Below, one piece after another: positions 23,403 through 26,642 of a stretch of DNA of 64,000 nucleotides. This stretch comes from an uncultured Nitrososphaerota archaeon (lineage in GTDB: Archaea; Asgardarchaeota; Njordarchaeia; Njordarchaeales; Njordarchaeaceae): the NCBI GenBank assembly GCA_964518475.1, contig CAZFGR010000001.1:1-64000 (forward strand), given 5' to 3'. Position 1 is the first letter of the stretch. The number at the start of each line of letters is the position of its first letter. A program made the translations under genes and the position numbers. The notes below the pieces were generated by a model that was given only the letters and a program-made list of their open reading frames with translations, had not been told where the DNA came from and searched no databases.

Positions 23403-23816
23403 ATGAAAGTATATCCAAGTGGTGATATTTACATACTCGTTCTCGAGCCTGGAGACGAAATTATAGAATCAATTAAAAAATTCGCTAAAGAAAATGATTT
23501 TCACGGATATTTCTTTGGGATAGGAGCCGTTCGAAATCCAGAAATAGGGTATTTCGATCTCGAGAAGAAAGAATATGTCATAAAAAGTCTTGAAGGCGAA
23601 TTCGAGGTCACGAGCTTGATAGGTAATGTATCGAGAGACAAGAATGGGGAAGTAATCGTACACGCTCATATAACTATCGGTGATAAAGAATACAGAGTAT
23701 TTGGAGGTCACTTAATAAAAGCAGTAGTATCCGTTACTTTAGAACTCTTCTGTGGAATAACGCGGAGAATTATGCGAAAGAGGGATGAAAAAACGGGATT
23801 AAAAATCATCTCCTAG
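23403..23816 (+). CDS. PPC/DUF296 domain protein
   Basis: LEPGDEI, GIGAV, EVTSLIGNVS, HAHITIGD, GGHL. Confidence 0.88.
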   Translation: MKVYPSGDIYILVLEPGDEIIESIKKFAKENDFHGYFFGIGAVRNPEIGYFDLEKKEYVIKSLEGEFEVTSLIGNVSRDKNGEVIVHAHITIGDKEYRVFGGHLIKAVVSVTLELFCGITRRIMRKRDEKTGLKIIS

Positions 23817-24089
23817 TAAGTCCTTTGTAACTATGGCGAAGGAGAAGCCATATTTTTCCACAATTTCTTTTACCGTTTTTTCCCGGCCCCCTTCATATAC
23901 AGTTACAGGTATTCCTTGAGGAGTAACTAAAGCTACTTCTTCAGCATCAAGTTCCAGCAACTTAGCGGCTTTAGCTACTACAACAGATATTGGATCCTCT
24001 AAGTTTGCGTGAACAACAACGCTTTTTCCTATAGAGCTTTCACGCATTTCATAGAAATACAGCTCTACAGTTGCTAGATATTCGCTCAA
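23799..24089 (-). CDS. UFM1-like ubiquitin-fold modifier, precursor form (…DLLG|DDF)
   Basis: DPISVVVAKAAKLL..VALVTPQGIPV..TVKEIVEKYGFSFAIVTKDLLG resembles UFM1 [47 protein letters not shown]|SC; next to E2 and E1 genes. Confidence 0.75.
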   Translation of the reverse strand: MSEYLATVELYFYEMRESSIGKSVVVHANLEDPISVVVAKAAKLLELDAEEVALVTPQGIPVTVYEGGREKTVKEIVEKYGFSFAIVTKDLLGDDF

Positions 24090-24207
24090 TAAACTCGCCC
24101 TTCGTACTCTATCAATTAATTTCAGTAGCTTAAACTACCATTTTAAAAGTTTATAGTTATTTATTAGCAAGATTCTACCCAGAATTTAATATTGAATTCA
24201 CTACTCA

Positions 24208-24735
24208 TCATGCTATCTTAAGAGGCTTTTTTACTAAACCTAAGAATACTTCCACGAAAATTAACCAATGGGCAATACCCATTCTACCTGCCTTATCCCA
24301 ATATCTTTTCAGGATCTCTCCTAAACATCTAGTTGGATCCGTATGTGACGTAAAAACTTCTAAACTCCCATCTAAAGCGCGAAGAGAATTAGGAGGGAGA
24401 ATAGGATATAGCTTAGGCAACAGAATTATGCATTTCTTAGACTTCTTATCTGAACTTTCTATAAAATCAACGTAGAAGACTTGATTATTATCTTTACTTG
24501 CTCTTAAGTTTTCAAAATGCGGTAGCAAATCCCCATAGATCGTTTTCTTAAAGAGATTGAAGATCTTAATTTCTTCTGTTACACGTTTAAACCAGTCCTG
24601 GTCCACTGGTTGTACTATATTTTCAAATTTAAGGAGATTTAGAATCGTAGAGAAAGCTTCCTCTCCAGTCCTTTTCTTTAACTTAGATAACCAATTCGCT
24701 AAAAATTCTAATTCTGCAAGAGACTCTTCATCCAT
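24208..24735 (-). CDS. UFC1-like E2 conjugating enzyme
   Basis: PVDQDWFKRVTEE vs UFC1 PRDRELWVQRLKEE; LPKLYPILPP..ALDG..RCL..KRYW..MGIAHWL vs IPITYPTTAP..ELDG..KICL..KPLW..FGLAHLM; catalytic Cys present. Confidence 0.78.
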   Translation of the reverse strand: MDEESLAELEFLANWLSKLKKRTGEEAFSTILNLLKFENIVQPVDQDWFKRVTEEIKIFNLFKKTIYGDLLPHFENLRASKDNNQVFYVDFIESSDKKSKKCIILLPKLYPILPPNSLRALDGSLEVFTSHTDPTRCLGEILKRYWDKAGRMGIAHWLIFVEVFLGLVKKPLKIA

Positions 24736-25546
24736 TACAGAACCTCCTATGAACTGAACAGTCCTCCCTTGGTTTCAGATTCTCTACAGTGCTTATCTTT
24801 ATTTCATCAAGTAGACTAATTTTTATTAGTGGGTATATCTTGCCGTAGCCAAGTAATATTTTCAATCCTTGATCCGTCTGCAAAGCGGCTACAATACTCA
24901 TTGTAGTTGCTAAACTAGCATCACATTGCCCAATTCTCTCAACACGATCAATTTGAATAGATGTCTCAGATCCATAATAACACTCATAACACGGAGTCTC
25001 GCATGGAATCACTGTGATAACTGTACCACTGAAACCAGAAACAGACGTTGCGCCATCTACTAGCGGCTTCTTATGCTTCATTATTAGATAATTAACTTCA
25101 TTCCTCGCAATAACGTTGTCAACACAGGTAAATACGATATCTACTTTACTAATAAGCTCTTCCAGCTTATCCCATCCAACAATATCAGCATGATAAGTTT
25201 CTATCTCAAGCCGATATCTTTCATCAATATCTCCATAATTTCTTAATCTCCTCAGTTTCTCCCCCAATACAATAGCTTTCGGCCGACCAACGTCTTCAGA
25301 TGAAAAGCCAAGCCTATTGAAGTTCTCTTCTCTCACAACGTCTCTATCAACGATATAGAGCTTCCCGATCCCCGTCCTGGCTAATATTTCCGCAACAATA
25401 ACACCTAGGCCTCCTGCACCTATGATTAATGCACTTTTTTCTACCAACTTATCTACTGGTATACCTGCCACCACCAGACGAGAGAACATGAGAGGTAATT
25501 TCTTTAGGAGCTCCTTCTTCTTTTTTCGATCCCTTATCAGAACCAT
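24728..25546 (-). CDS. UBA5-like E1 activating enzyme (ThiF family)
   Basis: FSRL, GAGGLG, NFNRLGF, VDIVFTCVDNVIAR, PCYEC, GQCDASLATTMSIVAA (UBA5: GVCAASLPTTMGVVAG). Confidence 0.85.
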   Translation of the reverse strand: MVLIRDRKKKKELLKKLPLMFSRLVVAGIPVDKLVEKSALIIGAGGLGVIVAEILARTGIGKLYIVDRDVVREENFNRLGFSSEDVGRPKAIVLGEKLRRLRNYGDIDERYRLEIETYHADIVGWDKLEELISKVDIVFTCVDNVIARNEVNYLIMKHKKPLVDGATSVSGFSGTVITVIPCETPCYECYYGSETSIQIDRVERIGQCDASLATTMSIVAALQTDQGLKILLGYGKIYPLIKISLLDEIKISTVENLKPREDCSVHRRFCNG

Positions 25547-25556
25547 TTTGTACCCT

Positions 25557-26642
25557 CTAACCTCTCATTTCTTTTTCTAAGAACTTTTTAAGCTCTCTCA
25601 ATAATTTTTTCTCTATCTTATTAAGTCTAGCTTCTAATTCCTTGAGAGAATAATTGTGGATCTCCCCTAATAGCTCTTCTTTTAACTTTTTCACTTCTTC
25701 AAGAATTAATTCTCTAATAAATTCTTCTAATGGCTTCCGAGTATGAATTACTTTCCCATTAATCTGCTCAAGAGATATCTCATCGTTTATAACCTCATTA
25801 TTACACAAAAAAATCACGTTCCCGGGCAACCTCAATACTTCCATGATCTCTTTTTTAACATCTCCAAATCTTTTATCAGTCGGAAAAATAAATTCGTAAC
25901 CTACGCCCTTTTCGTCAATTAAGACTAGAAAACGAGCTCTTCTTTCAAATTCTAATCTACTGATATCGGCCAGTTTATGGAAAATTTTCGCATTCTTCAC
26001 TCTAACTGGCGTTACTTCCTTCATAATAGCATAAGGCAATCCCCCTTCAAGTCTGCTAAGCAACGAAGCTACAGTGTCTTCTACATGGTAAAAAAAGGGA
26101 ATTCTAGTAGTTATTTCAACGTATGAAAATCTCAACTTATCCGCTAATGAATCAGCTACTTGGAAATCTATCTTCACAATCTCGTTATTAGCAACAGTGT
26201 AAGCGGAAACGTCTTTACCGCCTTTTGCGAAAATCACATGTGCATGTACGCCATCTCCAGCCCATCTTAAAAAAGTCTCTGCATCAACTGATGAGTAATT
26301 AGATCCTATCGTATCAGGATGTTTATGCATAATCCCTATTATTGATAGTCCTAGAGGAACTATGGAGAAAATTCTAGCTACTTTATATGGATCAGAAGCA
26401 ATGGATACTGGCGTTTTTTCTGAGTAGGGAAACTCTATTAGGTCGTAAACAATTGCTTCCTTATTCCTAATAAGACCAATCATGTAGAAACCTACTTCGG
26501 TATCTGTTTCATACCCTACTCTAATAGCTTTTTCAAAAGCCTTAGTGTCCATAATAACCTTGTCTACTGATGGCGTAATACCTACTAGTTTCTTCTTTTT
26601 CCTCTTCCTACTTCTCATTAAATCACCATTATTTCTTACCAA
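25557..26642 (-). CDS. JAMM/MPN+ metalloprotease with a putative internal Ubl domain and C-terminal coiled coil
   Basis: EVG...HKHPDTIGSNYSSVD (E, HxH, S, D zinc motif); beta-grasp-like segment FIFPTDKRFGDVKKEI..FLCNNEVINDEISL. Confidence 0.75.
   Translation of the reverse strand: MVRNNGDLMRSRKRKKKKLVGITPSVDKVIMDTKAFEKAIRVGYETDTEVGFYMIGLIRNKEAIVYDLIEFPYSEKTPVSIASDPYKVARIFSIVPLGLSIIGIMHKHPDTIGSNYSSVDAETFLRWAGDGVHAHVIFAKGGKDVSAYTVANNEIVKIDFQVADSLADKLRFSYVEITTRIPFFYHVEDTVASLLSRLEGGLPYAIMKEVTPVRVKNAKIFHKLADISRLEFERRARFLVLIDEKGVGYEFIFPTDKRFGDVKKEIMEVLRLPGNVIFLCNNEVINDEISLEQINGKVIHTRKPLEEFIRELILEEVKKLKEELLGEIHNYSLKELEARLNKIEKKLLRELKKFLEKEMRG

Follow-up and report, generated by a model that had tools for sequence, protein, structure and literature searches.

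A probable UFM1-type protein-conjugation operon in a Njordarchaeales (Asgard) archaeon

The DNA analysed here (the window) is a stretch of 64 kb, the first part of a 402-kb contig (CAZFGR010000001.1) from the 2.33-Mb genome of a Njordarchaeales (Asgard) archaeon, estimated to be 91% complete. Candidatus Njordarchaeales / Njordarchaeota are its closest relatives that bear a name. Four co-oriented genes on its minus strand, at 23799-26642, encode in order a JAMM-family protein, an activating enzyme (E1), a conjugating enzyme (E2) and a small ubiquitin-like protein (Ubl), and very likely make up a self-contained operon for protein conjugation of the UFM1 type. UFMylation is a conserved eukaryotic quality-control pathway for ribosomes at the endoplasmic reticulum. 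The original prediction, drawn from the sequence of the window, had proposed a UFM1-type E1-E2-modifier-protease module at this position, and both the homology of the encoded proteins and the linkage of their genes support that proposal.

Homology of the four encoded proteins

The E1 could be assigned from its single sequence, which matched Pfam ThiF at 4.6e-47. When it was searched against all solved structures, the best five matches were all UBA5 (2.7e-25, 92.8 bits, residues 31-263), followed by ThiF (71.9 bits, 6e-19) and MoeB (67.3 bits). A family profile built from 18 Asgard relatives placed the solved structures in the same order, with UBA5 at 146.8 bits, ThiF at 108.9, MoeB at 103.1 and BubCD at 59.5. 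By these sequence comparisons the operon E1 has a ThiF fold and, among the solved structures, is most closely related to UBA5, and the earlier view of it as UBA5-type rather than generic MoeB/ThiF was borne out by the single sequence and by the profile. The best NCBIfam models for the protein were those of ThiF and MoeB, none of them at its cut-off. Residues invariant in the 18 family members include the GxGGxG motif (G43, G45, G46, G48), D67, D143, C186, C189 and C208; C186 and C189 correspond to the zinc pair, and the ATP and Mg residues are likewise invariant. Cys208 aligns on the active-site Cys of UBA5 and is followed by the A-S-L-x-T-T-M common to both proteins (C-A-S-L-P-T-T-M in UBA5), in keeping with the UBA5-like catalytic motif first recognised from the sequence alone. 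Each of the E1 motifs quoted at that time (FSRL, NFNRLGF, TCVDNVIAR and CDASLATTM) is found in the translation. In two related genomes the E1 gene has an in-frame TGA, which was considered as a selenocysteine codon and rejected, as its position is outside the aligned core and an ordinary codon specifies the catalytic Cys.

The E2, the Ubl and the JAMM protein gave uninformative results when searched singly in Pfam, NCBIfam and PDB, and it was family profiles and structure models that proved informative. When 1.8 billion representative proteins were scanned exhaustively with HMMER, the operon E2 retrieved only 14 matches, itself included. The profile of 16 aligned E2 family members matched UFC1 at 4e-12 to 2e-11, compared with 2e-5 for UBE2L3, the best ordinary E2, and placed Cys137 on the catalytic Cys of UFC1; this Cys is invariant in 16/16 of the aligned members. 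Pfam UFC1 was itself matched at E <= 0.1 by 7 of the 16, the best at 4.4e-7. An AlphaFold2 (AF2) model of the operon E2, with a predicted local distance difference test (pLDDT) score of 85, had UFC1 structures as its top 24 Foldseek matches, and VIA-align gave UFC1 a Z score of 13.8 over 136-140 residues, with the next E2 at Z 9.5. In the predicted structure the alignment runs from residue 22 of the E2 onto residue 0 of UFC1, taking in the extra N-terminal helix of UFC1 and leaving an N-terminal extension of about 20 residues beyond it. The protein ends 6 residues past a helix at 154-169, no helices being predicted beyond the crossover helix, and it has no HPN motif, as is also true of UFC1. 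Close relatives keep H-T-D immediately before the Cys. The 175-aa protein is therefore predicted to have a UFC1-type UBC fold, UFC1 coming first in profile and fold searches alike, as had been proposed. The E2 motifs quoted in its support are present (DQDWFKRVTEE, LYPILPP, LDG, CLGE...W and GIAH), although two of the schematic spacings ('YP..P..LDG' and 'CL...W') were looser than the actual sequence. Within the E2 family tree the operon E2 belongs to a well-supported, fast-evolving clade of E2s encoded downstream of E1 genes (stem 1.85), and this long branch explains why Pfam misses it. The tree left ambiguous which of the two E2s in the clusters of other families is its counterpart.

For the Ubl, the closest relative was indicated by structure prediction. 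The top 14 Foldseek matches of its AF2 model (pLDDT 82) were all UFM1 (E 4e-6, root-mean-square deviation (rmsd) 2.0), with template-modelling (TM) scores of 0.72-0.75 by query and 0.85-0.88 by target. VIA-align also ranked UFM1 first, at Z 13.3-12.2 (rmsd 1.8-2.8, 78-86 residues); the next fold followed at 10.6, and bacterial Ubl, ISG15 and SUMO at Z of about 9-10. On the predicted model, then, the Ubl is structurally closest to UFM1, in agreement with the original prediction. Two of 10 family members matched the Pfam UFM1 model PF03671 at E 0.03-1. At the C-terminus, D-x-L-G is invariant in 10 relatives, down to 28% identity, and is followed by 0-4 variable residues; the operon Ubl reads DLLG and then DDF, the single Gly with a short tail that had been described. 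The profile alignment to UFM1 terminates Gly-on-Gly, with the invariant Gly93 on Gly83 of UFM1. At the level of sequence, an invariant D-x-L-G with a variable tail behind it marks a modifier that, like UFM1, is matured at one Gly.

The JAMM protein carries the expected E ... HxH ... S..D motif, and its residues E49, H106, H108, S117 and D120 are invariant in an 11-sequence family alignment. The family profile matched AfJAMM (2e-4) and BRCC36 (0.023), 4 of the 11 members matched Pfam Prok-JAB (best 3.3e-6), and the named ESM Atlas neighbours of the protein, whether by features or by structure, were all JAB/Prok-JAB clusters. With its metal and catalytic residues conserved, the protein can be taken for the JAMM protease that was predicted, and putatively for the enzyme that processes the Ubl precursor and deconjugates the modifier. 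Residues ~222-312 of its Atlas model match the beta-grasp folds of SUMO, ubiquitin and RBD at TM 0.65-0.72, and a coiled-coil C-terminus comes next. Because of these model matches the protease appears to carry a non-conjugatable Ubl-like domain of its own. A predicted complex of the JAMM domain (22-200) with the Ubl scored 0.00 and was counted neither way.

Gene linkage, sister genes and genomic setting

Spacing within the operon is tight. The JAMM and E1 genes are separated by 10 nt, the E2 start lies over the E1 stop in an overlap of 8 nt, and 118 nt lie ahead of the Ubl gene (Table 1), so that the open reading frame (ORF) coordinates agree with the layout first reported (co-oriented genes, closely packed save for a 118-bp gap, with E1 and E2 overlapping). 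This linkage is conserved. JAMM, E1 and E2 genes were adjacent in 11/11 Asgard loci examined, a sample drawn from the order to which this archaeon belongs and from four other Asgard families (7 loci from the latter), and the Ubl gene was present in 8 of the 11, including 5 of the 7 from other families. The order SIS-JAMM-E1-E2-Ubl recurs in a Njord relative with a 61%-identical E2, where the whole neighbourhood is syntenic, and a contig encoding a 46%-identical E2 has JAMM-E1-E2. The four other families show Ubl-E2-JAMM-E1-E2 or variants of it, with up to three E2 genes; protein relatives named Helarchaeota, Jordarchaeaceae, Freyarchaeota and Promethearchaeota suggest which lineages these families represent.

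In a set of 400 genomes from the phylum, 22 were matched by the E2 profile and 22 by the Ubl profile, 19 of them by both. The families holding the E2 and those holding the Ubl nearly coincide, E1s of at least 279 bits occurred in exactly those families, and all three components share the same seven families. Weaker E1 relatives (157-207 bits) were found in other families, sometimes beside weak Ubl or E2 matches, and more divergent versions of the system may thus be more widespread; in three genomes of other Asgard families it is E1 relatives of ~170 bits that adjoin such matches. Four genomes of other Asgard families have genes of the UFM1-like cluster directly beside those for an AAA ATPase, SMC, a protein in the kleisin position and ScpB. 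The protein in the kleisin position had no Pfam match in these four genomes.

The genome contains further copies of these components. A sister E1-Ubl pair in the window, together with two further UFC1-like E2s elsewhere in the genome, had been overlooked in the original prediction. The sister module lies downstream of PriL and of an SMC-kleisin-ScpB-like string (48451-54401). Both UFC1-like paralogues score above the 25-bit curated cut-off of Pfam UFC1. One of the two is encoded behind a radical-SAM gene, while the gene of the other overlaps one for a zinc-ribbon protein (127 aa, four CxxC pairs) that might act as an E3 or adaptor. Compared with the sister E1-Ubl pair and the UFC1-like paralogues, the JAMM-containing operon is the most complete copy in the genome. 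Three ThiF-family genes were found in all, namely a canonical MoeB-type gene on contig 12 (265.9 bits), the operon E1 and its paralogue in the sister module. A separate sulfur-carrier set consists of this canonical MoeB-type E1, a ThiS/Urm1-like gene and a small Prok-JAB, and since the genome has its own MoeB-type E1 and ThiS/Urm1-like protein, the operon E1 is not the housekeeping sulfur-transfer enzyme.

Table 1. Positions of the operon genes, the sister module and the UFC1-like paralogues (positions in the window unless a contig is named)
Feature	Position	Strand	Remarks
JAMM/MPN metalloprotease	26642..25557	-	361 aa from TTG; probably 353 aa from ATG 26618
UBA5-like E1	25546..24728	-	272 aa; ThiF-type adenylation domain, putative catalytic Cys208 within
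UFC1-like E2	24735..24208	-	175 aa; putative catalytic Cys137, predicted UFC1-type extra N-terminal helix
Spacer before Ubl gene	24090..24207	-	118 nt, A/T-rich; read from sequence
TATA-like element CTTTTAAAA	24149-24141	-	~52 nt upstream of Ubl start
UFM1-like Ubl precursor	24089..23799	-	96 aa, TTG start; predicted mature end Gly93, then DDF
Paralogous UBA5-like E1	48515..47748	-	Pfam ThiF 1.2e-39; 50% identical to operon E1
Coiled-coil protein	47779..47378	-	133 aa; between sister E1 and sister Ubl
Second UFM1-like Ubl	47271..46960	-	103 aa, ending directly in ..DMLG; operon Ubl profile 1e-15 over 46963-47217
Sec61beta	46938..46726	-	Immediately after sister Ubl
UFC1-like paralogue	contig 1, 178923-179441	-	30.1 bits; matches operon E2 at 7e-12
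UFC1-like paralogue	contig 1, 73985-74353	+	32.4 bits; Pfam UFC1 model scan

The TATA-like element in the spacer may provide the Ubl gene with a separate promoter. For the JAMM gene, the ATG at 26618 is a more likely start than the TTG at 26642, because of the N-terminus of a homologue and because of its context, 10 nt past the point where the upstream SIS-domain gene stops, with GGTGAT before it. An 11-nt context, AGTTTATTGAG, is common to the apparent TTG starts of the Ubl gene (24089) and the SIS-domain gene (27342), both on the minus strand. The SIS-domain gene was considered as a further member of the module and set aside; it abuts the JAMM gene directly, yet it is syntenic only in close relatives. 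A search of sequencing runs for the operon found it in five DNA metagenomes and in zero RNA datasets.

Several features of the surroundings were recorded in passing. Two paralogous amidohydrolase genes (~449 aa; 18853-20202 and 29713-31059, minus strand) bracket the ~9.5-kb operon region, and do so likewise in the Njord relative. At 22457-23390, beside a PCC-domain gene converging on the Ubl gene, a 139-aa ORF lies with an overlapping convergent ORF of 183 aa; a gene in the equivalent neighbourhood of the Njord relative has a Pfam HepT-like match, which suggests a toxin-antitoxin pair of the nucleotidyltransferase/HEPN type. A 122-nt tRNA match by Rfam at 54587-54708 (plus strand), absent from the ARAGORN output, is probably an intron-containing tRNA gene. 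The uL24 gene at 57394-57900 (minus strand) encodes 168 aa, with a KOW domain, then a Lys/Arg-rich stretch and then an acidic tail of ~45 residues. uL24 is the main UFM1 target in eukaryotes.

Proposed cascade and the readings weighed against it

From these relationships we infer a likely cascade. The JAMM metalloprotease would trim the three residues after Gly93 from the 96-aa Ubl precursor. The UBA5-like E1, which is probably homodimeric as other ThiF-type enzymes are, would then adenylate Gly93 with ATP and Mg and take up the Ubl as a thioester on Cys208, from where it would be transferred to Cys137 of the UFC1-like E2 and onward to lysines of presumed targets, without a recognisable E3. 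The JAMM enzyme would also reverse the modification. Candidates for recruiting the Ubl and the E2 to an E1 that has no tail are the N-terminal segment of the E2 and the internal Ubl-like domain of the protease.

A number of results weigh against reading the operon as a UFM1-type system. UBA5 needs its C-terminal tail for binding UFM1 and UFC1, and the operon E1 is without this UFM1-interacting and UFC1-binding region; the alignment to UBA5 spans 31-263 of its 272 aa, so the protein stops 9 residues past the aligned domain and has no C-terminal extension. The TAK motif of UFC1 is absent from the E2, the TAK positions aligning with non-conserved residues in the family profile. On its own, the E2 had no Pfam or PDB match, with no hit to PF08694 at E <= 1, nor in six-frame searches at E <= 10. 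The JAMM protein alone likewise had no Pfam match. PF03671 found no match in the genome at E <= 10, the operon Ubl included, and when the 10-member Ubl profile was searched against PDB, 12 of the 14 matches were UFM1 at E values of only 0.4-1.3, which are not significant. The assignment of the Ubl to UFM1 thus depends on a predicted structure built from a five-sequence alignment. Searches of the 91%-complete genome with Pfam UFL1, DDRGK and Peptidase_C78 (UFSP) gave sub-threshold matches of winged-helix type or no matches. No recognisable E3 was found, and CDK5RAP3 was not detected.

Four other explanations were weighed. The operon might serve antiviral defence, as the archaeal counterpart of bacterial Bil, Bub and CBASS-Cap2/Cap3, using the same biochemistry to tag phage or virus proteins. 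Its gene content is identical to that of bacterial Ubl-E2-E1-JAMM operons, the bacterial Ubl structures 8tyx and 8tyz were among the Ubl matches at Z 9.8, the distribution is patchy (22/400 genomes), and the E1 matched PADLOC E1-E2 (Cap2-type) models at up to 71 bits, through the generic E1 domain only. The E2, the Ubl and the JAMM protein had no PADLOC match, although this is a weak point, as PADLOC 2023 is older than the Bil systems. UFM1 and UFC1 stand 3.5-4 Z units above bacterial Ubl and ordinary E2s, the E1 is a separate protein rather than an E1-E2 fusion, and the genes flanking the operon are housekeeping genes in a neighbourhood that is syntenic in the relative with the 61%-identical E2; in other families the cluster adjoins SMC-ScpB and not defence genes. 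A defence role is therefore unlikely. It could also be envisaged that the Ubl is a sulfur carrier similar to SAMP or Urm1, which the E1 would only adenylate and thiocarboxylate for tRNA thiolation or cofactor synthesis, the 175-aa protein being no working E2. In archaea, SAMPs are served by an E1 and a JAMM protease but no E2, and the operon E1 does belong to the ThiF family, with ThiF and MoeB its best NCBIfam models below cut-off. However, the C-terminal motif of the Ubl is one Gly with a removable tail after it instead of Gly-Gly, the E2 keeps its Cys throughout the aligned family and its gene overlaps that of the E1, the genome has the separate MoeB-type E1 and ThiS/Urm1-like protein mentioned above, and the E1 profile scores 38 bits higher for UBA5 than for ThiF. 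We consider a sulfur carrier very unlikely.

That the operon is instead a generic archaeal ubiquitin-like cascade of the Caldiarchaeum/Asgard type, its resemblance to UFM1, UFC1 and UBA5 being due to convergence or to a model artefact, is suggested by an identity to the human proteins of only 16-20%, by the non-significant sequence E-values of the Ubl against UFM1 and by the presence of Caldiarchaeum ubiquitin among its Foldseek matches. Yet the E2 profile favours UFC1 over ordinary E2s by seven orders of magnitude, two paralogues pass the curated threshold of Pfam UFC1, the E1 prefers UBA5, the extra helix specific to UFC1 is predicted and HPN is absent, and searches of the genome with the UQ_con E2 and ubiquitin models of Pfam gave no match. 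Since three components (E1, E2 and Ubl) independently point to one eukaryotic pathway, such a generic cascade is highly improbable. Finally, the genes might have been acquired recently from a eukaryote, or represent eukaryotic contamination of the assembly, as two of the three families have been reported as eukaryote-only (PMC10183829) and the contamination of the genome bin is estimated at 5.8%. In contrast, the 402-kb contig holds archaeal RNase P RNA, RNA polymerase B, PriL and uL24, the genes are operonic, intron-free and overlapping, one of them encodes a JAMM protease, which has no part in the eukaryotic pathway, the proteins are less than 20% identical to eukaryotic ones, and the module is present in several Asgard families, which together make a eukaryotic source extremely improbable. 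A self-contained UFM1-type conjugation operon remains the reading that we consider very likely.

Relation to known systems and significance

The operon resembles the eukaryotic UFM1 system in each of its three conjugation components. The E1 is non-canonical, with its presumed catalytic Cys inside the adenylation domain and within the UBA5 motif; the E2 has the predicted architecture of UFC1 (an additional helix at the N-terminus, the HPN motif missing, nothing beyond the crossover helix and a Cys placed as in UFC1); and the Ubl is predicted to have a beta-grasp of the UFM1 type, with one terminal Gly that becomes the C-terminus once a short tail is cut off. In contrast to eukaryotes, a JAMM metalloprotease takes the place of the UFSP C78 cysteine proteases, the archaeal E1 is tail-less, the archaeal E2 lacks TAK, no UFL1, DDRGK1 or CDK5RAP3 was detected in the genome, the archaeal genes are gathered in one operon, and sequence identity is only 16-20%.

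Genes for a Ubl, an E2, an E1 and a JAMM protease also occur together in bacterial Bil and Bub operons, which, like CBASS Cap2/Cap3, share with the archaeal operon their gene content, the expected E1-to-E2 thioester chemistry and trimming or reversal by JAMM. The archaeal parts are nonetheless nearer to UFM1, UFC1 and UBA5 (Z 13.3 against 9.8 for the Ubl; 147 bits against 59.5 bits for BubCD with the E1), and the archaeal operon lies in a housekeeping rather than a defence context. The Caldiarchaeum/Asgard ubiquitin operon (ubiquitin, UBA1-like E1, UBC E2, RING E3 and Rpn11-like JAMM) is also an archaeal E1-E2-Ubl operon in which a JAMM protein matures the modifier, but it is of ubiquitin type (the modifier is a Gly-Gly protein, the E2 has HPN and the E3 is a RING protein), whereas the Njord operon appears to be of UFM1 type and lacks a recognisable E3. 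The archaeal SAMP/UbaA system, too, relies on a ThiF-type E1 and a JAMM protease, together with a small modifier of beta-grasp fold; its SAMPs are Gly-Gly proteins, E2-free and also sulfur carriers, while the Njord operon encodes a Cys-bearing E2 translationally coupled to the E1.

According to a survey of 2023, UFM1, UFC1 and UFSP2 are exclusively eukaryotic and UBA5 occurs in prokaryotes, with a probable bacterial origin, and UFL1 and DDRGK1 arose in Asgard archaea (PMC10183829). Structure-based screening published in 2026 (Nat Microbiol) reported proteins resembling Ufm1 from nine clades of Asgard archaea and from no prokaryote outside them (PMC12962969), in line with the remark in the original prediction that UFM1-like Ubls had been noted in Asgard genomes. 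The text of the paper does not mention UFC1 or UBA5, and in what was read of it no gene neighbourhood or protease is described (PMC12962969). The operon Ubl is consistent with the homologues reported there, and what appears to be new here, relative to that paper, is an operon in which the Ubl is accompanied by its likely E1, E2 and protease. An archaeal UFC1, or a JAMM-E1-E2-Ubl operon of this type, had no prior description in the literature searched, which did not cover all journals.

It is possible, though on balance somewhat doubtful, that the operon keeps an ancestral form of UFMylation, in which UFM1, UFC1 and UBA5 would have descended vertically from Asgard archaea as one E3-independent module serviced by JAMM, with UFSP, the UBA5 tail and UFL1-DDRGK1 added later. 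Such an archaeal system might already have acted on the ribosome or translocon, or on chromosome-organising machinery, an idea prompted by the sister module abutting Sec61beta and by the clusters beside SMC-ScpB. The four proteins are small, probably thermostable and suited to recombinant work, and the operon offers for mechanistic study a minimal version of the pathway, without an E1 tail or an E3. Two of the three UFM1-like parts have been reported as eukaryote-only, and an operon that unites a UFM1-like tag, a UBA5-like E1, a UFC1-like E2 and a protease makes an archaeal origin of the whole cascade directly testable.

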